Shown piece by piece: positions 2,529 through 61,189 of a stretch of DNA of 64,000 nt (the first letter of the stretch is position 1; each line of letters begins with the position of its first letter). The stretch is from the NCBI GenBank assembly GCA_965222605.1, contig OZ244960.1:5408001-5472000 (forward strand). Direction: 5' to 3'. The position numbers and the translations under genes were made by a program. The notes beneath the pieces were generated by a model, which saw nothing but the letters and a program-made list of their open reading frames with translations, was not told the origin of the DNA and ran no database searches. The stretch comes from Candidatus Latescibacterota bacterium. GTDB taxonomy: Bacteria > Latescibacterota > UBA2968.

Positions 2529-4985
2529 TCAGTTGCTTTTGAAAGGGTCGCTCAAAACAACGAGGGTGATGAGATCATGCAGGCCCTTATTTTTTTCCTG
2601 TACATCCCGAACTATTGCATCAACCCCTGGTCGATCAGAAATTCCCAACTCGCGACCAATTGCATAGGTCAGCAATTTATCTGTCAGACAACGCGTGAAT
2701 TCTGCGTGACGCTTTGTCATTAGCTTGCGAAATTCGATGAAGGATTTAAAAGTTTCGCCACTCGGCAATTTTCCCGAAGGATCAATCGCTGCGCTTTGGG
2801 TATAGCGGGTTCGCCAACCGCCGATCGCATCAAAGTTTTCCAGCGCAAAACCAGGCGGATCGATTTTGCTATGACATTGGGCGCAGGTCGGCATCTCGCG
2901 GTGCTTGACCAGTTGATCTCTGATGGTTGTTGCCCCTCGCGTGTCTGGCTCAATCTCAGGCACATCGTCCGGCGGTGGCGGCGGTGTGTATCCCAGCAAA
3001 TTTTCCAGCACATAAATCCCGCGCACCACAGGCGAAGTATCTACGCCATTGGCCGAAGCCATGAGAAAACTGCCCTGGCCCAGCAAACCACCGCGTGGTG
3101 TCCCGGTGAGCGGAACCCGGCGAAAATGCGCTCCCTCAATACCTTCTATCCCATAATGCCGGGCAAGTTCCCGATTGAGAAAGGAATAATCAGCAGAAAG
3201 AAATTCACGGAGCGAAAGATTGTTGTCGAGTACGTGCCCAAAAAACGTCTCTGTTTCAGTCAACATAGCAGGGCCGAGATTATCGCGGAAATAGACTCTA
3301 AAATCCGGGGACGGTGGCATCTCACCAATGTTGTCATAGTCGAGCCACACGCGAATGAAATCTTTAACAAAGCGGTGCGACTTTGTGTCACTGAGCATAC
3401 GATGGATCTGCTTACTGAGCGTGGCCGGGTCGCTGAGTTTCTTCTGTTGAGCAAGTGATAGCAGTTCATCATCTGGCACGGAAGACCACAAAAAATAGGA
3501 TAATCGGGCAGCCAGAGAATAATCATCCAGGGCGCCCTCGCCTTCATGCAAAAACAGAAAAGCAGGCGAACTGAGAATGGCCTGAAAACCCAGTTGTAAT
3601 GCGGCCAACGGCGCCATGCCATTGCTGAGTTTTTCATGCGCAAGCGACTCAAATGGTGCCAGTTCTCCAGGCCGCAAGGGCCTGCGAAAAGCGTCTGTGG
3701 CAAATGCACGCAAACGCTCCGAAATGCTCTTCCGGTCCAAATCCTCAGGTTGTAAATCGCCATACATCAACTGATGTCCGCGTGGAGGCCAGTCTTTCAC
3801 TTGGGGTCCACTAACCTGAACTTCCCAAATCCTTAGCTTAGGCCCGCGGTAAACCTTGAGCAGCGCGTGATTTCTTTCATTACCCGGTTTCTGATCTACG
3901 AAGGGCAGGATTTCGGGTTTTGGATTTTTTGCCCTGGTAAGCTTGCGAACCAGTGCTTTGGTTGCCAATGTTCCATTGCGGAAACGAACCTCAGGCTCAA
4001 CCCCTTTTTCCAGATAAACATCCCATTCAAACCACTGAGGCTCTTCACGGATCAGTTCAACAGTTGCAAGCGTGTATTCGCGAGAAATATTGCCCGTGCT
4101 CTCCACACTGCCTTTGCGATCTACGGCCGCCAACTCCAGCACAAGCGGATCGCCTTTGGGAAAATCGTTGAGTTCTTTGTCATAATGGTGATTGCGATCA
4201 ATTGCTGCCGCCCGCACCCTTATAGTATAGGTTCCACTGACAGGGACACCACCATCCATCAGCGGATAAAAACCAATATGACCACCCCGGTAGTGCCGTC
4301 CAGTCAGATCATCGTATCCCGTATCTGACACAAACCGAAAGCGATCCTCTCTAAAAACCTTGGGCAAGGAGCTGGCCTGTTTGCCTTTAAAATAGAAAGG
4401 GGATTTCTGCACGTAATTTTTGGCTTCGGGTTTGGCTTCAAAATGCGTGGCTCGCGTGACGGCTTCTTCAGCAACACGCAAATAGTGATCGAGCAACATG
4501 CCCGACGTGACAAGCCCGGCGGCATTGTTATCAAAGCCTTTGACCTTCACTTCGGGTGGAAAATCTTCCGTTGGATCCCAGGCCTCCATATTCAGACGGA
4601 GTAAATCACCGAGTGTTTGGCGATATTCCCAGGCGTTGAGTCGCCTAAGAGGTGTATGCTGTCCTTTGCCTGACAATCGCATACGCGCTTCAGCAATTGA
4701 TACTGTAATCACTTGAACAGTGGCAAGCACCTCATCTTTACTCGGCTGCATCTGGCGCTTTGGTGGCATCGACTGCAGGTTGAGCTGATCAACAATATCC
4801 TGCCATAGTTCTAATTCTTTGAGGTTGACAATCGTCTCAGAAAACTGATCAAAGCGCCGATCGGCTTTTTGCACGCTTGAACCATGACACTTTACACAAT
4901 ATTGTGTAAGAAATGCCCCGGGCAGTTCTGCCCAAACAGAATGAGCGCATAGCGTGAAGACAATAACCATCAAAACCCGCTTCAT
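2529..4985 (-). CDS. DUF1592/DUF1588/DUF1587/DUF1595/DUF1585 protein with planctomycete-type cytochrome c motifs
   Basis: Signal peptide; CVKCH and CAQCH heme motifs; RRLNAWEYRQTL, RLSYFLWSS, TSPVVRG and GFALENFDAIG signatures. Confidence 0.9.
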   Translation of the reverse strand: MKRVLMVIVFTLCAHSVWAELPGAFLTQYCVKCHGSSVQKADRRFDQFSETIVNLKELELWQDIVDQLNLQSMPPKRQMQPSKDEVLATVQVITVSIAEARMRLSGKGQHTPLRRLNAWEYRQTLGDLLRLNMEAWDPTEDFPPEVKVKGFDNNAAGLVTSGMLLDHYLRVAEEAVTRATHFEAKPEAKNYVQKSPFYFKGKQASSLPKVFREDRFRFVSDTGYDDLTGRHYRGGHIGFYPLMDGGVPVSGTYTIRVRAAAIDRNHHYDKELNDFPKGDPLVLELAAVDRKGSVESTGNISREYTLATVELIREEPQWFEWDVYLEKGVEPEVRFRNGTLATKALVRKLTRAKNPKPEILPFVDQKPGNERNHALLKVYRGPKLRIWEVQVSGPQVKDWPPRGHQLMYGDLQPEDLDRKSISERLRAFATDAFRRPLRPGELAPFESLAHEKLSNGMAPLAALQLGFQAILSSPAFLFLHEGEGALDDYSLAARLSYFLWSSVPDDELLSLAQQKKLSDPATLSKQIHRMLSDTKSHRFVKDFIRVWLDYDNIGEMPPSPDFRVYFRDNLGPAMLTETETFFGHVLDNNLSLREFLSADYSFLNRELARHYGIEGIEGAHFRRVPLTGTPRGGLLGQGSFLMASANGVDTSPVVRGIYVLENLLGYTPPPPPDDVPEIEPDTRGATTIRDQLVKHREMPTCAQCHSKIDPPGFALENFDAIGGWRTRYTQSAAIDPSGKLPSGETFKSFIEFRKLMTKRHAEFTRCLTDKLLTYAIGRELGISDRPGVDAIVRDVQEKNKGLHDLITLVVLSDPFKSN

Positions 4986-6235
4986 GAAATCTCCATCGCA
5001 GAAAAGGTCCCGGTGCTTTTACCAAAGCTATCTCGCTCTACGCCAAACCACTGCAGGGCGGAAAGCCAGAGATTTGACAGCGGAATTCGCTTGTGTGCCT
5101 CAGCAGGACACACGAGATGCCCTTGATGGTTCAAACCGCCCCCCGCGAGAATTACCGGCAAATTCTTATTGGAATGCCTTGAACCATCGCCCATGCCACT
5201 TCCCAGAACAATTAGTGTGTCGTCAAACACCTTTGCTTCTTTGAGGTGATCCAGAAACCGACCAAACTGAGTCAACAAATATTCTTCCACAACCTGCAGG
5301 TCTTTCAATCGCCCCTCCGCCTTGCCGTGATGTGAAAGGCCGTGATATCCGCCAAGGTTGAGTTCGGACGTCTTAAAGGCCAGGGGGATTTCAAAGGTCG
5401 CAACCCGTGTCGAGTCTGTCTGTAATGCCAGCGTTAGCAGATCATAAAAAAGCGGCATTTCCTCAATTTGCATCCGTTCGAGGTCTTCCACAGGCTCAAT
5501 TGGAGATTCTGGCTTGGGTTTGTCGAGCCATTCGCGCGACATTTGCAGGCGATGCTCGACATCGCGCACCGAAGTCAGATATTGATCGAGCTTACCGCGA
5601 TCCGCCGCATTCAATTGCCCATGGAGTGTCTTGGCCGACTCAAGCAAGGCGTCAAGTACACTGCCCCGATTTGATAATGTACGACGCTCTGCGCTTCGCA
5701 TAGCCTCATCATTCTGTACAAACAAAGCTTGAAAAATGCGGGCAGGATTGTTAATCGGTGCCACATTTACGCCCGACCGCATCCATACCATGTCTGTACC
5801 TTTGCCCAACCCTGCAGTAATTGAGGGAAAGCGCGTTGTACTGCCCACATGCTCAGCCGCCATCTGGTCCAGCGTCATATTCTTTTCGGGGAAACCCGCG
5901 GCTTCTTCCTTGCGCACGCTGCTCAGAAACACGTGTACGCCAGCGTGTCCACCACCCGTACCATGATCGAGATTTGAAAAGACAGTAAAATCACCTCGGT
6001 GTGAATTGATATACTTCAGCGTCAGGCTCGTCTCATAGTCCTTACCGAGTTGCTTGGGAAAAAATCCGCCCGGCCAAAATCCCAGATGATTGCCCACGCA
6101 GACCAGGCGCCTCGGATTTGCCGCACCGTACACCATTCTGCTTTCTAAGAAAGGCAAAGATAGTGCTACGCCTGCGCCCTGTAAAAAGTGCCGACGATTA
6201 ACCCGCGCTTGCAAAAGTTCAGAAATGACGTTCAT
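4982..6235 (-). CDS. DUF1552 domain protein
   Basis: Tat-like RRHFLQGAG-ALSLPFLES; SVLD, LDQYLTSVRDVE, YHGLSHH, HSNKNLPVILAGG; overlaps its usual DUF1592 partner by 4 nt. Confidence 0.9.
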   Translation of the reverse strand: MNVISELLQARVNRRHFLQGAGVALSLPFLESRMVYGAANPRRLVCVGNHLGFWPGGFFPKQLGKDYETSLTLKYINSHRGDFTVFSNLDHGTGGGHAGVHVFLSSVRKEEAAGFPEKNMTLDQMAAEHVGSTTRFPSITAGLGKGTDMVWMRSGVNVAPINNPARIFQALFVQNDEAMRSAERRTLSNRGSVLDALLESAKTLHGQLNAADRGKLDQYLTSVRDVEHRLQMSREWLDKPKPESPIEPVEDLERMQIEEMPLFYDLLTLALQTDSTRVATFEIPLAFKTSELNLGGYHGLSHHGKAEGRLKDLQVVEEYLLTQFGRFLDHLKEAKVFDDTLIVLGSGMGDGSRHSNKNLPVILAGGGLNHQGHLVCPAEAHKRIPLSNLWLSALQWFGVERDSFGKSTGTFSAMEIS

Positions 6236-10456: not shown

Positions 10457-11350
10457 TTATTTATTGAGCATACTATACAGGCGTGGGATCTGTTCGACCA
10501 GGATTTCTGCCCTGGTCATCTTTTCCCACACGTCGCCGACTCCACCATATTCGAATGTCACAATCCACGGTCGCCCCCACGTACCATTGTTAATCTGATC
10601 TATCACCCATGCCAAGAACGACCAGTCATCGTGCCCCATTGGCATGTGATCCACCAAACGGCCCTCGACGCGCTGGATAATTGCTTCATCCACTCCTATC
10701 TGGCGTGCCATCTCTATGTAGGTTCCTTCAATCCGGTGGATGCCAGTGATATGAAGTTCTTCGATGTGTTGGACTGGCAAGTCTGTAATATACTCACGTG
10801 CGTCGATACCCAAATAGTCGGCAGCCAGGCGAGCATGAGATACATCTAAAAGCAACCCACAACCCGTCTCCGCTACTATCTGACAAATGACTTCTGATAA
10901 GAACGCTGGACGTAATACGTTGTGTGTTCTTCCATCGAAATCGTTCTCAACAACTACCCGCTCTGCTCCAAAACGCCGGACTACGGCACTCACATCCCGG
11001 ATCATATTATCTCTCAGCATTTCGATATGTATCGGATCCGTGGTATTGGCCGATACTTCTGGGTAATCAGTATCTTCTGGTGCCAGATGCAGGTTTATAA
11101 AAGGTGTGTCTGTTTGTTCCATTAGACCTTCGACCTGATCCCACTTGGCTGGCTGATTGGTATGGGGATTCACTGCATCAGAGATACCCAGGCCTACCTT
11201 AAGTGGAAAGTGTAGGTAAACGGGGTGACTTTCTTGAATCGTTGTAATTTGGTCAAACAAATGGTCAGAACACTTGAAACGTTCGAAGGCAATCTGCTGC
11301 TGCCGCAGCAACTCTGCCGCTTGGATAGAATAATTTACAGCAAGTTTCAT
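10457..11350 (-). CDS. DUF692 / MNIO-like TIM-barrel metalloenzyme
   Basis: NLHL, VVEND, GLLLDVSHA, EELHITG, DH and FEYG pattern typical of DUF692. Confidence 0.65.
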   Translation of the reverse strand: MKLAVNYSIQAAELLRQQQIAFERFKCSDHLFDQITTIQESHPVYLHFPLKVGLGISDAVNPHTNQPAKWDQVEGLMEQTDTPFINLHLAPEDTDYPEVSANTTDPIHIEMLRDNMIRDVSAVVRRFGAERVVVENDFDGRTHNVLRPAFLSEVICQIVAETGCGLLLDVSHARLAADYLGIDAREYITDLPVQHIEELHITGIHRIEGTYIEMARQIGVDEAIIQRVEGRLVDHMPMGHDDWSFLAWVIDQINNGTWGRPWIVTFEYGGVGDVWEKMTRAEILVEQIPRLYSMLNK

Positions 11351-14372: not shown

Positions 14373-14477
14373 TGGCAGAGGGTGTGGGAATCGAACCCAT
14401 ATACGAGATATCCTACAGGATACTCGTAGCCCTCGGTTTGGAAGCCTCGGGGCCGACACCATCGGCTCTCACCCCCT
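14373..14477 (-). tRNA. Non-canonical tRNA-Sec-like gene with 8/4 fold (allo-tRNA-like); anticodon loop CUUCCAAA
   Basis: Acceptor AGGGGGTG/CACCCTCT (8 bp, G3.U70), G73, encoded CCA; T arm TGGG-TTCGATT-CCCA (4 bp); D arm GCCGA-TGGTG-TCGGC; variable arm TACGAG.TATCCT-GT-AGGATA.T.CTCGTA; TATGAT about 20 nt upstream. Confidence 0.75.
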
Positions 14478-14598
14478 GCTCAATAATTCGACGATATCAT
14501 AAAATGGAATGTTTCGGCTGGGATAGGGAAGACTACACATTGTTCTTTTTGAAGTGCATCGACCGGGTTTTTCGTCGCTGCGATGAGGACTGACTTGC

Positions 14599-17077: not shown

Positions 17078-17535
17078 TTATTCAGACTTACGACAGGAAA
17101 AAACGACGATATCATGCTCCGATGGTTCGGTGTCCCCGTAAGCTTTCGTCGTCTGTATATCCATAAATCCTGCGGTACGTAGCATTTCTTCAAATTCAAC
17201 TGTGTCATAAAACCGTTCATTATAGTCGAACAGTTCAGTCGTAGTGAGTTCTCCATTCATATACACTTCATATTTGGTTAGGTTGCGAATGACTCGTCCA
17301 CCGTCTCTTTCAGACCATAATGAAGTAATCCAAACGGTCGAACCATCAAGCCGGTCTTCGATTTCAATTTCCGTTTCGCCTGATTTTCCAAACTCACCTT
17401 CTTCAAGTGGCGTCTTGACGTCCAGAACAAACCATCCACCGGGCAAGAGATAGTCCCAGAGTTTCTGGAGAGATTTCCGAGCAGATTCCTTTTCATAGAG
17501 ATGACCAAATGAACGGTCCGGGATGAAAATGAATC
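17078..17535 (-). pseudogene. C-terminal part of a SAM methyltransferase, 5' end replaced by the GNAT gene
   Basis: GFIFIPDRSFGHLY...LLPGGWFVLD...LRTAGF; SAM-binding motif I is absent. Confidence 0.7.
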
Positions 17536-18074
17536 CATTTGTCCCGATACAAGAGAAATACAGACCGCTCGGGCAACATGTGGTCCTCAAATTCGCCTCT
17601 ACCCAGTCCAGGGGGTACACGCTCGATCTCCTCAAAATCCAGCCGGTGGAGAAGCCGGACAGACCGTTTGTTTGCAACAACGCATCTGGCTTCAATTTCG
17701 TCCAGATCCAAATCTTCAAAACCTACCTGCAGGATGCTTCGGACAGCCTCTGATGCAAAGCCCTGACCCCAATAAACGGGCGACAATTCGTAGCCTATGT
17801 CACCCCGCCGGCTCTCAATGCTTTCTGTGCGTATTCCGCAGTTACCGAGTAATATCCCATTTGAGCGGTCTGTGATGGCGAACTGGAACTTGCATCTCGG
17901 ACTTTCTTTGGACCATGCGATGCACTTATCTACAAAGCGGACGCACTCCTCTCTGGTGTAGGCGGGCCGGTAGTAGTATTCCAGATACCTTGGGTCCCTT
18001 CTGAACTCGACGATGGCGTCCACGTCTTGTTTGGTGAACTCCCTCAGAAGTAAGCGTTCAGTCAACTTTTCCAA
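17493..18074 (-). CDS. RimJ/RimL-family GNAT acetyltransferase, copy 1 (module A)
   Basis: TERLLLREF, DIGYELSPVYWGQGFASEA, NKRSVRLL; near-identical to 20401-20964. Confidence 0.85.
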   Translation of the reverse strand: MEKLTERLLLREFTKQDVDAIVEFRRDPRYLEYYYRPAYTREECVRFVDKCIAWSKESPRCKFQFAITDRSNGILLGNCGIRTESIESRRGDIGYELSPVYWGQGFASEAVRSILQVGFEDLDLDEIEARCVVANKRSVRLLHRLDFEEIERVPPGLGRGEFEDHMLPERSVFLLYRDKWIHFHPGPFIWSSL

Positions 18075-20258: not shown

Positions 20259-20402
20259 ATATACGAGATATCCTACAGGATACCCGTAGCCCTCGGTTTG
20301 GAAGCCCTCGGGGCCAGCACCACCGGCTCTCACCCCCTGCTCAATAATTCGACGATATCATAAAATGGAATGTTTCGGCTGGGATAGGGAAGACTACACA
20401 TT
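20259..20402 (-). pseudogene. Truncated second copy of the tRNA-like gene with its upstream region (module T)
   Basis: Matches 14399-14541; lacks the T arm and the 3' acceptor strand. Confidence 0.8.
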
Positions 20403-20964
20403 ATTTGTCTCGAAGCGCGTGGATCCATTTGTCCCGATACAAGAGAAATACAGACCGCTCGGGCAATGTGCGGTCCTCAAATTCATCTCTACCCGGTCCG
20501 GGGGGTACACGCTCAGTCTCCTCGAAACCCAGCCGGTGGAGAAGCCGGACAGACCGTTTGTTTGCAACAACGCATCTGGCTTCAATCTCGTCCAGGCCCA
20601 AATCTTCAAAACCTACCTGTAGGATGCTCCGGACAGCCTCTGACGCAAAGCCCTGACCCCAATAAACGGGCGACAATTCGTAGCCTATGTCACCCCGCTG
20701 GCTCTCAATGCTTTCTGTGCGTACTCCACAGTCACCGAGTAATATCCCATTTGAGCGGTTCGTGATGGCCAACTGGAACTTGCATCTGGGACTTTCTTTG
20801 GACCATGCGATACACTTATCTACAAAGCGGACGCACTCCTCTCTGGTGTAGGCGGGCCGGTAGTAGTATTCCAGATACCTTGGGTCCCTCCTGAACTCGG
20901 CGATGGCGTCCACGTCTTGTTTGGTGAACTCTCTCAGAAGCAAGCGTTCGGTCAGCTTTTCCAT
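20401..20964 (-). CDS. RimJ/RimL-family GNAT acetyltransferase, copy 2 (module A)
   Basis: Paralog of 17493-18074; ATG at 20964; different C-terminal tail. Confidence 0.85.
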   Translation of the reverse strand: MEKLTERLLLREFTKQDVDAIAEFRRDPRYLEYYYRPAYTREECVRFVDKCIAWSKESPRCKFQLAITNRSNGILLGDCGVRTESIESQRGDIGYELSPVYWGQGFASEAVRSILQVGFEDLGLDEIEARCVVANKRSVRLLHRLGFEETERVPPGPGRDEFEDRTLPERSVFLLYRDKWIHALRDK

Positions 20965-59871: not shown

Positions 59872-60126
59872 GTGAGAAATGCGGATGGAAGCGCGTATTA
59901 TCAATGGATAGAGCTGTGTGAGCAAGCAGGTGTCAAATGCGAAATTCACCAGCTTCGGCACACAGCCGCGACGGAGCTGGTGAACAGTGGCGTGGGTGTT
60001 GGCACAGTGCGCTGGCTACTGGGTCATCGCAATTTGCAGACAACTCAGCGATATGCGAATCTATCCACTGAGACTGTCCGGCAGGAGCTGGATACCTTCG
60101 CGCGTAGAAAAACGCGGACCCGGTGA
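59872..60126 (+). pseudogene. Tyrosine recombinase C-terminal fragment
   Basis: HQLRHTAAT, LLGH, TTQRY; N-terminal part absent. Second copy at 60760-60899. Confidence 0.8.
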
Positions 60127-60459
60127 TCGCGAATGGACTTCTGAGCAGTAATAAAACGCTTTGTAGATGCATTAATAGGCAGGCGTTGCATGTAAACCGG
60201 ATGTGTTGGTGGCACAGTGGGGATCCTATTTAACAACAGATAAGGTCCCCACCGAATCTCGTCTTCAGCAATCGCACACCAATGTAGTTTTGCGTCCTTA
60301 TCAGATTTTAGCAAGGTTTTCAAAAAGCAGTATGGAGATAATCCAACCAAATATCACAGAAAATGGAAACTGGGACAAATTTTGAACTTTAGGACAAATT
60401 TTTGGGGTTGACATCACGAGGCATTATAGAATATTAAAAAGTGGAGTTACCCCGTTTTG

Positions 60460-61189
60460 GATGCTGTTGCCGAATTCCGAATACTGTTCTCAGTGCAACT
60501 AAACATAGGGCTTGCAGAGTCTGTATTCAGGCCACAAACAGCCATCTTTTTAACCGCAGGTCCCTCTTGACCAATGGAGAACTATGAAACGCGATCCTAT
60601 TGTCGAAGAAATTCACCAGACGAGACAGAAACTCCTAAAAGAGTGCGGCGGCGACCTCAACCAGTTAATGGACCGCTTAAAAGCCGCTGAAGTACAAGAC
60701 CGAAGTCGTGTGGTCAGCACCATCTCTGTCCGCAAAACTTCATACTCATAACGACAGTCAGCAGGCGTCAAATGCGGGATCCATCAGCTTCGGCACACGA
60801 CCGCGACGGAGCTGGTGAACAGTGGCGTGGGCACGGTGCGCCAGCTACTCGGTCATCGCAATTTGCAGACCACGCAGCACTATGCGAAACTATCCACTGG
60901 AGCGGGGTACAATTACGCAAGTAGTTCAACCGTCCTGCATGAACCGGATGCCGACGTGGAAAGAGGTCAGAAAATTGGGCATTGTCATAAATGGAGCCTA
61001 ACTCATCGCGCATCTTCATATAGATATTGCCTTTGGGAAAGGCAGCTTGGGCAATACGAACGGTCTCTTTGGGCACGGGTTCAATTGGATCTTTGGATAG
61101 GGACATGGATTACCTCGGTAAAAGGGAAGAGGTACACGGAACCAGAAACCCTACATGATATGGTCATTATTTAATTCGGCAACAGCATC
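60460..61189 (-). mobile_element. IS1182-like non-autonomous element carrying cargo
   Basis: 17-bp TIR GATGCTGTTGCCGAATT; 6-bp target duplication GTTTTG; transposase 5' stub MSLSKDPIEPVPKETVRIAQAAFPKGNIYMKMRDELG at 60950-61106 (-). Confidence 0.85.
60584..60751 (+). CDS. Small antitoxin-like protein (55 aa)
   Basis: GGAG RBS; MKRDPIVEEIHQTRQKLLKECGGDL, a type usually found next to PIN toxins; below the ORF-track cutoff. Confidence 0.55.
   Translation: MKRDPIVEEIHQTRQKLLKECGGDLNQLMDRLKAAEVQDRSRVVSTISVRKTSYS

Follow-up and report, generated by a model that had tools for sequence, protein, structure and literature searches.

Among transfer RNAs (tRNAs), whose usual 7/5 shape has seven pairs in the acceptor stem and five in the T stem, allo-tRNAs form the chief natural exception, and they already serve as a chassis for genetic-code engineering. 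As described by Mukai et al. (2017, Nucleic Acids Res, PMC5389517), several allo-tRNAs are active in translation in Escherichia coli, and the hosts named in that paper are Clostridia, Proteobacteria and Acidobacteria, whereas the gene presented here comes from a member of the Latescibacterota. The gene, which we call type A, is 105 nucleotides (nt) long and allo-tRNA-like, and it lies at positions 14373-14477, on the minus strand, of a 64,000-nt stretch of DNA, the whole of which is referred to below as the window. The source genome is a single contig of 6.34 Mb, and the window is the part of it at 5.41-5.47 Mb. A first-pass annotation, made from the letters of the window, had proposed that the gene is allo-tRNA-like, with an 8/4 branch and mixed identity elements, and this proposal is borne out by the Rfam tRNA-Sec score, the fold, the covariation among homologs, an independent RNAalifold analysis and the copies found across the genus. 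Our leading explanation, which we hold tentatively, is that type A encodes an aminoacylatable allo-tRNA whose anticodon loop, expanded toward 5′, displays a Trp-type CCA anticodon, and which would read UGG if it decodes; we name it allo-tRNA(CCA). Type A itself is a conserved and lineage-specific form of allo-tRNA that belongs to one genus of the Latescibacterota; that it is also functional is a part of the explanation, put forward just as tentatively.

The RNA is numbered here from its 5′ end, so that base p corresponds to window coordinate 14478-p, and all of its parts lie on the minus strand. The acceptor stem has eight pairs, formed by bases 1-8, AGGGGGUG (A1, G2, G3 and so on; 14470-14477), with bases 94-101, CACCCUCU (14377-14384), and these pairs include A1-U72, G2-C71, G3.U70, G4-C69 and G5-C68. 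The stem is followed by G73 (14376) and an encoded CCA (14375-14373). A linker of three bases leads into a D arm with the loop UGGUG and a stem of 5 bp, or 6 bp with an A.C pair included, and then comes the anticodon arm (14431-14450), a six-position stem CCGAGG/CCGAGG with a tandem G.A/A.G at its center, two pairs that are flagged as non-standard in the Rfam alignment. The anticodon loop, CUUCCAAA (14437-14444), is 8 nt long, and its core consists of U at 14442, CCA at 14441-14439 and A at 14438. A long variable arm (14402-14428), drawn from the single-sequence fold and from pair counts in the homologs, has 11 bp, one bulged U and a 4-nt loop. The T arm (14385-14399), which is seen in the single fold, in the pair counts and by RNAalifold, has a 4-bp stem UGGG/CCCA and the loop UUCGAUU, so that the acceptor/T branch is 8/4. 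On the minus strand we recovered what the first-pass annotation had claimed for the 105-nt span, the 8/4 fold, G3.U70, G73, CCA, the 4-bp T stem and the UUCGAUU loop, and its irregular anticodon arm appears as such in the Rfam alignment. Its long variable stem also stands, although at 11 pairs with a bulge rather than the roughly 12 bp that it gave, and its 8-nt anticodon loop holds for this window, with half of the genus copies carrying one extra G on the 5′ side.

Type A is a structured RNA under selection, and its structure is far from what chance would produce. Its minimum-free-energy fold is the cloverleaf, at -45 kcal/mol (z -2.6), and 2 of 200 shuffled sequences fold as well. The comparative evidence comes from 12 homologs aligned to a covariance model, which take in genus copies, metagenome genes and a decayed copy in the genome G030, which belongs to another genus, and which represent 7 lineages that are 56-83% identical to each other. 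Standard pairs occupy 97.4% of the pair cells in this alignment versus 87.7% in shuffles, none of 500 of which reaches the observed value, and both sides have changed in 15 of 32 pairs, versus 2-6 when the 3′ partners are slid by one to three columns. The variable arm alone has 9 of its 11 pairs changed on both sides among the homologs, and the outer pairs of the anticodon stem are conserved or covarying. RNAalifold, applied to 9 sequences aligned independently with MAFFT, again predicts the 8/4 cloverleaf and its 8-nt loop and finds 9 of 32 pairs compensatory; the covariation check suggested with the first-pass annotation thus supports the 8/4 fold in both the model-fitted and the independent alignment. 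Within the genus, substitutions either fall in loops or are compensatory, as in the D stem, where GA/UC becomes AG/CU, and in the variable stem, where A-U becomes G-C or G.U. The D loop is 4-6 nt long across homologs and always keeps GGU, and relatives have the T-loop alleles UUCGAUC and UUCGGUC; with GGU in the D loop and the T loop both conserved, the elbow of a tRNA should form. Homologs with a 7-nt loop and a 7/5 or 8/5 fold, the refuting outcome set beforehand, were not found, and the enlarged anticodon loop is kept in all 16 genus copies and in all 4 metagenome genes described below. The tandem G.A in the anticodon stem is not general among the homologs: L064 has A-U/A-U at these positions, and L065 and L066 have G.A/A.A. 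A role for the tandem G.A as a K-turn or protein-binding site was considered and set aside; the motif is specific to the genus and is replaced by A-U/A-U in L064.

The distribution of type A was mapped by BLAST together with a covariance model built from seven genus sequences (R1). Full-length copies, 90-94% identical, were found in 12 of 21 genus genomes, the source included, and one further genus genome (G015) has a copy without the 5′ acceptor strand. No R1 match of at least 90 bits was found outside the genus among 132 genomes of the class. A wider search used a pattern that fixed the acceptor stem and left the anticodon loop free. Over 185,579 species genomes, one for each species, it returned 9 records, all titled as Latescibacterota or Latescibacteria metagenome-assembled genomes (MAGs); in metagenomes it returned 3 contigs with 4 divergent genes, 57-83% identical and with the fold kept, and in viral contigs it had no match. 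Alleles of relatives are also present in contigs from RNA libraries labelled as sponge metagenomes. G73 and G3.U70 occur in all copies, and although the pattern imposed them on the metagenome and MAG matches, the invariance of the acceptor stem is unforced in the genus copies and in the paralogs that were found by model.

Among Rfam families, tRNA-Sec (RF01852) is the best match to type A, with 37 bits in E-value mode (E 5.6e-6), which stays below the gathering score of 47. The source genome has a canonical selC at 3.61 Mb, which scores 73 bits and is given the anticodon TCA by ARAGORN, and it has selA and selB at about 1.08 Mb; a decayed selC is ruled out by these genes, since they are found elsewhere in the genome. 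Their position also agrees with the earlier remark that selA and selB are missing from the window (selD was not searched for). The set of tRNAs called by ARAGORN in the source genome is normal, and includes tRNA-Trp(CCA), tRNA-Gly(UCC) and four tRNA-Ala. Elsewhere on the source contig, outside the window, ARAGORN reports an 87-nt tRNA-Ile(GAU) with a long variable arm (5780692-5780778, minus strand), which resembles a relative of tRNA-Ser(GCU) whose anticodon has changed and whose 5′ acceptor strand is mismatched, and is probably a pseudogene.

The anticodon loop occurs in several types, which are CUUCCAAA and (G)CUUCCAAA in the genus, AUUCCAAA, CAUCCAAA and CCUCCAAG, and GGCAUCCAAA in the decayed G030 copy. 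The sequence UCCAA is invariant in 12 of 12 aligned sequences, and this invariance was not imposed, since the loop positions were unconstrained in the search. The invariant U is preceded by CU, GCU, AU, CA, CC or GGCA, that is 2 to about 4 bases, of which the immediate neighbor may be U, A or C. On the 3′ side of CCA there are always exactly two bases, AA or AG, so that the length of the loop changes on its 5′ side alone. In the source genome, tRNA-Trp has A1-U72, G73 and the loop CUCCAAA. The simplest register would therefore read U33, C34-C35-A36, A37 and A38, which is the loop of tRNA-Trp with surplus bases on its 5′ side. This Trp reading is favored because UCCAA is invariant, the base before U is variable and the length changes only on the 5′ side. 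When run at a 60% threshold with a forced 6-nt intron, ARAGORN finds the gene and calls it Trp(cca). The first-pass annotation had left three readings of the loop side by side, and the comparative data favor Trp CCA over Gly UCC and the quadruplet UCCA, which fit less well because, for three of the five loop types (CAUCCAAA, GGCAUCCAAA and CCUCCAAG), they place A or C at position 33.

The quadruplet reading would make type A a suppressor of + 1 frameshifts, in which CU-UCCA-AA takes UGGA as one codon. The loop of this window does have the classic C32-U33-NNNN-A-A layout, UCCA is invariant in every one of the 12 homologs, and tRNAs with 8-nt loops, such as SufB2 (10.1101/2020.12.31.424971), are described as shifting + 1. 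We nevertheless consider it very unlikely: apart from position 33, half of the genus copies have a 9-nt loop, and in the long open reading frames (ORFs) of the source genome A follows 24.6% of 22,639 in-frame UGG codons, versus 23.0% after other NNG codons. UGGA is thus not avoided, which argues against an efficient UGGA decoder, and thousands of sites would be exposed to it. No candidate target gene was found, though no genome-wide search for targets was made. A frameshifted gene downstream was tried as a candidate and rejected: the 137- and 144-amino-acid (aa) versions of a neighboring 270-aa ORF in L010 and L014 end at the joints of a VOC/glyoxalase cassette, and are thus the product of recombination and not of frameshifting. 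The 270-aa ORF itself has no Pfam match.

According to the glycine reading, type A would be a missense tRNA for the Gly codons GGA and GGG, with the anticodon UCC set as CU-UCC-AA and the surplus taken up by the last A or by a G.A pair. It draws on the tRNA-Gly(UCC) of the genome, whose loop is CUUCCAA, and on the extra-G allele, in which a G.A closing pair leaves exactly this 7-nt loop. The divergent homologs tell against it: what would be position 33 is A or C in them, and CCA is without exception followed by exactly two bases. A further point against this reading, to which we give very little weight, is the G73 of type A, since U73 belongs to the identity set of bacterial tRNA-Gly.

What type A may be charged with can be judged from the identity elements that it carries. 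In bacteria, the Trp set consists of G73, A1-U72, G2-C71, G3-C70, G4-C69, G5-C68, A9 and C34-C35-A36, and the Ala set of A73, G2-C71, G3.U70, G4-C69 and G20 (Giege and Eriani 2023, PMC9976931). Type A has every acceptor element of the Trp set except G3-C70, in place of which it has G3.U70; the Trp anticodon positions match only with the invariant U as U33, and the body is 8/4 with a long variable arm. As for the Ala set, its three acceptor pairs are present, the discriminator is G73 and not A73, and the D loop has U after GG. SerRS uses a long variable arm together with G73, both of which type A carries, and allo-tRNAs with G3:U70 are described as inserting mainly Ala in E. coli, and also Ser if they have G73 (Mukai et al., PMC5389517). 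Judged by these elements, type A can probably be aminoacylated, with Ala, Trp or Ser. The source genome encodes one AlaRS and, in class Ib, a TyrRS, a TrpRS and a second TrpRS paralog (TrpRS-2). A dedicated synthetase was considered and rejected: TrpRS-2 has matches in 29 of 30 other genomes of the family, with or without the gene, and shows no link with type A. As a separate observation, TrpRS-2 of the source contig (1202740-1203483, minus strand, corresponding to L070:1336-2082, minus strand) is 248 aa long and, next to the full-length form that other members of the genus encode, lacks about 75 residues around the expected KMSKS region; the short form is itself conserved, with 81-98% identity, in 10 further genomes of the genus.

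Put together, the proposed course of events for allo-tRNA(CCA) is as follows. The RNA would be transcribed with a conserved upstream block, processed like a tRNA and aminoacylated, most likely with alanine by way of G3.U70, or else with tryptophan (G73, A1-U72 and CCA) or serine (G73 and the long variable arm). At the ribosome it would pair with UGG as a triplet while the extra 5′ bases of the loop are looped out, and the yeast mitochondrial tRNA-Thr(UAG) is described as an 8-nt-loop tRNA that can read triplets (PMC3113583). Its role would then be that of a minor or conditional reader of UGG, either as an alternative Trp-tRNA or as a Trp-to-Ala or Trp-to-Ser missense tRNA, and it would be neither a Sec tRNA, nor a Gly tRNA, nor an efficient UGGA frameshift suppressor. 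The boldest form of this idea, which we regard as improbable, is that in a sponge-associated genus selection maintains a tRNA with a loop of 8-10 nt that pairs with UGG (or UGGA) and carries Ala or Ser by virtue of its invariant G3.U70/G73 acceptor end, as a natural and conditional recoding, or ambiguity, of the Trp codon, with the paralogs described next forming a second, non-ribosomal branch of one family of aminoacylatable RNAs.

The genus and its family carry one to three further genes per genome, often two or three in tandem, that have a 9/3 branch and a short variable arm. They share the acceptor stem and tail of type A (A1-U72, G3.U70, G73 and CCA; AGGGGGYGA...UCRCCCUCUGCCA), and one type A homolog, L064, itself has a 9/3 branch. 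By the acceptor pattern, the 9/3 family occurs in 20 of 168 genomes of the phylum, almost all of them in one family (18 of 30 there), and its members go unseen by ARAGORN. The anticodon arm in these genes is of three kinds: a tetraloop (AUUG, ACUG or AUAU) on a 6-bp stem whose closing pairs covary, a stem with the 6-nt loop AUUCUG, and a stem with a 10-12-nt loop rich in A and C. The source contig has one of the tetraloop kind at 4,238,736-4,238,822 (minus strand, outside the window), with relatives in L040 and L042-L054. The 9/3 paralogs lack a usable anticodon loop and are unable to decode in the usual way, and for this reason the idea that the whole family does something other than decoding has to be taken seriously as a rival to allo-tRNA(CCA), if a less probable one.

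According to this rival, type A would be a tRNA-like RNA that is charged at its G3.U70/G73/CCA end and is not used by the ribosome; it might donate its aminoacyl group to a tRNA-dependent transferase, or else use its UCCAA loop to bind TrpRS or some other partner, in the manner of a sensor or decoy, and the 9/3 paralogs would behave alike. The paralogs, which keep the acceptor stem and tail without the anticodon loop, speak for it, as does the fact that the length of the type A loop is not fixed; irregular allo-tRNAs inactive in translation, and tRNAs that are charged and left unused, are described by Mukai et al. (PMC5389517). The genome also has one stand-alone DUF2156/LPG_synthase_C aminoacyl-tRNA transferase domain and the second TrpRS paralog. 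However, the DUF2156 gene is 3 Mb away, TrpRS-2 is distributed regardless of the type A gene, and no tRNA-dependent transferase adjoins the gene in any of the contexts seen. FemAB and CDPS had no match in the source genome, and neither did the LanB-N/PEARL domain (Lant_dehydr_N), for which the control matched 0 of 14 genomes, so that this last search is uninformative. Moreover, the retention of the U33-CCA-A37-A38 loop of tRNA-Trp is most simply explained by codon pairing or by recognition of the anticodon. Of the options listed in the first-pass annotation, the non-translating mimic has thus gained weight from the 9/3 paralogs, and the frameshift suppressor has become a poorer fit.

Several observations weigh against allo-tRNA(CCA). 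The standard 7-nt loop expected of allo-tRNAs is absent: among the 16 genus copies the loop is 8 nt in eight and 9 nt in the other eight, and in G030 it is about 10 nt, which looks like a relaxed geometry of the anticodon loop. Tandem mismatches occur in the anticodon stem of most lineages, and a reader of UGG that inserts Ala would be costly, with 22,639 UGG codons in long ORFs alone. The common function of the family may lie at the acceptor end and not in decoding, and in the MAG and metagenome matches it was the search pattern that imposed an invariant acceptor stem. The routine tools are silent as well: ARAGORN called no tRNA in the window except under the 60% setting described above, and no Rfam family matched the window at gathering thresholds, so that of the checks proposed at the outset the Rfam comparison favored tRNA-Sec below threshold and ARAGORN gave nothing. 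The evidence from RNA consists of assembled contigs from 4 runs, from which ends, strand and expression level are not readable. In run X4 a 235-nt contig over 14337-14522 spans the whole gene in a relative's allele, in run X5 a contig over 14457-14521 holds the first 21 bases of the gene together with a relative's upstream sequence, and runs X1 and X2 have no contig over 14228-14514. DNA carry-over is possible, since the flanking genes are covered in all 4 runs at a depth similar to that of the gene, and the contigs are evidence of presence in RNA libraries, not of a defined transcript.

Other unfavorable points concern the place of the gene in the genome, and they are also what would be expected of a decaying relic or hitch-hiker, that is, a functionless pseudogene derived from selC or a tRNA-Ser, or a site of recombination that resembles a tRNA in a mobile cassette region. 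Beyond an upstream block of about 80 nt and a short downstream stretch, the flanks are variable, and the 16 copies occupy at least seven unrelated upstream contexts. By BLAST and R1, 8 of the 21 genus genomes, which are 95-99% complete, have no match. The window holds a second, truncated copy (20259-20338, minus strand), which consists of bases 1-79 alone in the extra-G allele; it is 94% identical, scores 82.5 bits with R1 and has no T arm or 3′ acceptor strand. In two genus genomes a second copy (L031:327-458 and L032:1128-1259, both minus strand) has a 26-nt hairpin inserted in its T loop, although the rest of its cloverleaf is intact and scores 117-120 bits with R1. The copy in G015 has lost its 5′ strand, and the surroundings of the gene are variable and cassette-like, with neighboring cassettes duplicated or rearranged and visible joints between neighboring genes. 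Even so, we think it highly unlikely that type A is without function: compensatory substitutions and an invariant loop persist across lineages that are 56-83% identical, every stem is kept in the intact copies, the canonical selC is elsewhere, no terminal repeats were found around the gene, and no integrase match lies closer than about 45 kb. The nearest ones are two fragments, at about 59899-60895 (plus strand), that match the C-terminal part of the phage-integrase family; one of them has an internal stop, and they look like a remnant.

The upstream block of type A (14478-14562, minus strand) is kept in all 16 copies and may be a promoter or a leader. It holds a TATTAT hexamer, which stops 5 nt short of base 1. 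A promoter scan found no sigma-70 consensus promoter upstream of the gene and one promoter-like site downstream, at 14359-14332. The block is repeated with 91% identity at 20306-20423, and the truncated copy in the window has its own upstream block, reaching to about 20423. Upstream of the truncated copy lie GNAT and MFS genes, and an MFS gene likewise lies upstream of the full copy. Across the contexts examined, the same kinds of neighbors recur in different orders (MFS transporters, Acetyltransf_3 GNATs, an NAD-epimerase, VOC/glyoxalase proteins, methyltransferases and APH), and no toxin-antitoxin genes were seen there.

The wider window has features of its own. Between 9 and 25 kb it has the look of a patchwork, made of small accessory genes that were duplicated and shuffled, and a 300-nt direct repeat, 94% identical, lies within two Acetyltransf_3 GNAT genes (17530-17829 and 20420-20719). 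About 3 kb from the tRNA-like gene there is an ORF that matches the MbnB/TglH/ChrH family (10457-11350, minus strand), a family that modifies the precursors of ribosomally synthesized and post-translationally modified peptides, and it adjoins a beta-helix/NosD-like protein and a methyltransferase. A LanB-type partner for it did not turn up in the source genome, in the search whose control matched no genome. Further away, at 2529-6235 (minus strand), are two large genes with Planctomycete-type PSCyt/PSD domains (DUF1592, DUF1588, DUF1585, DUF1587 and DUF1595) and DUF1552.

The type A family adds a new host phylum to the allo-tRNAs, and its conserved anticodon loop of other than 7 nt tests how strict the geometry of that loop has to be. 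A Trp-type anticodon combined with the Ala determinant G3.U70 would amount to a natural experiment in conflicting tRNA identity, and the sister genes, which keep the acceptor end without the anticodon loop, point to uses of aminoacyl-tRNA-like RNA outside decoding. Should the RNA prove inactive, it would nonetheless illustrate the ways in which tRNA-Sec-like genes diversify and decay where the genome is variable, and the reasons why standard tRNA finders miss them. A literature search for allo-tRNAs and Latescibacter found none reported from the Latescibacterota, though the supplements of PMC5389517, which it did not cover, could hold a member.

Of the known systems, the closest are the allo-tRNAs as described by Mukai et al. 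(PMC5389517). They share with type A the 12-bp acceptor branch of 8/4 (or 9/3, as in the one homolog), a long D stem like that of tRNA-Sec, a 6-pair anticodon stem and a long variable arm, as well as G73 (the class also has U73) and, in some members, G3:U70. They too match tRNA-Sec models below threshold, and they too have irregular relatives in tandem arrays, some of which are thought not to translate. Unlike them, type A has an anticodon loop of 8-10 nt instead of 7 nt, and in the contexts seen no toxin-antitoxin genes stand beside it. Neither a CCA anticodon of the Trp type nor an enlarged anticodon loop is mentioned in the main text of PMC5389517, where "UGG", "Trp", "tryptophan" and "anticodon loop" do not occur, its Figure 2 and supplements lying outside that check. 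Bacterial tRNA-Sec, the best Rfam match, has the same 8-bp acceptor stem, long D stem, 6-pair anticodon stem, long variable arm and G73, and the selC of the source genome has a nearly identical T arm and a loop, CUUCAAA, that differs from that of type A by one C. However, tRNA-Sec is 8/5, with 13 pairs and a UCA anticodon, whereas type A is 8/4, with 12 pairs, no UCA and a sub-threshold score. With bacterial tRNA-Trp it shares A1-U72, G2-C71, G4-C69, G5-C68, G73 and the loop core U33-C34-C35-A36-A37-A38; tRNA-Trp is a class I tRNA of 7/5 shape with G3-C70, in contrast to the class II, 8/4 body of type A, its G3.U70 and its one to three extra bases 5′ of U33. An enlarged anticodon loop in a selected tRNA is known from the yeast mitochondrial tRNA-Thr(UAG) (PMC3113583) and from SufB2 (10.1101/2020.12.31.424971); as described there, these have a 7/5 body and demonstrated decoding, whereas in type A the surplus bases stand 5′ of a conserved U, their number varies and decoding is a matter of inference. 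Finally, the G-1 tRNA1 species and the Bacillus cereus tRNA-Other (PMC5389517) are described as charged and non-translating, whereas the charging of type A is a prediction, and the likeness to them, an intact acceptor end beside an anticodon region unsuited to decoding, is greatest for the 9/3 paralogs.

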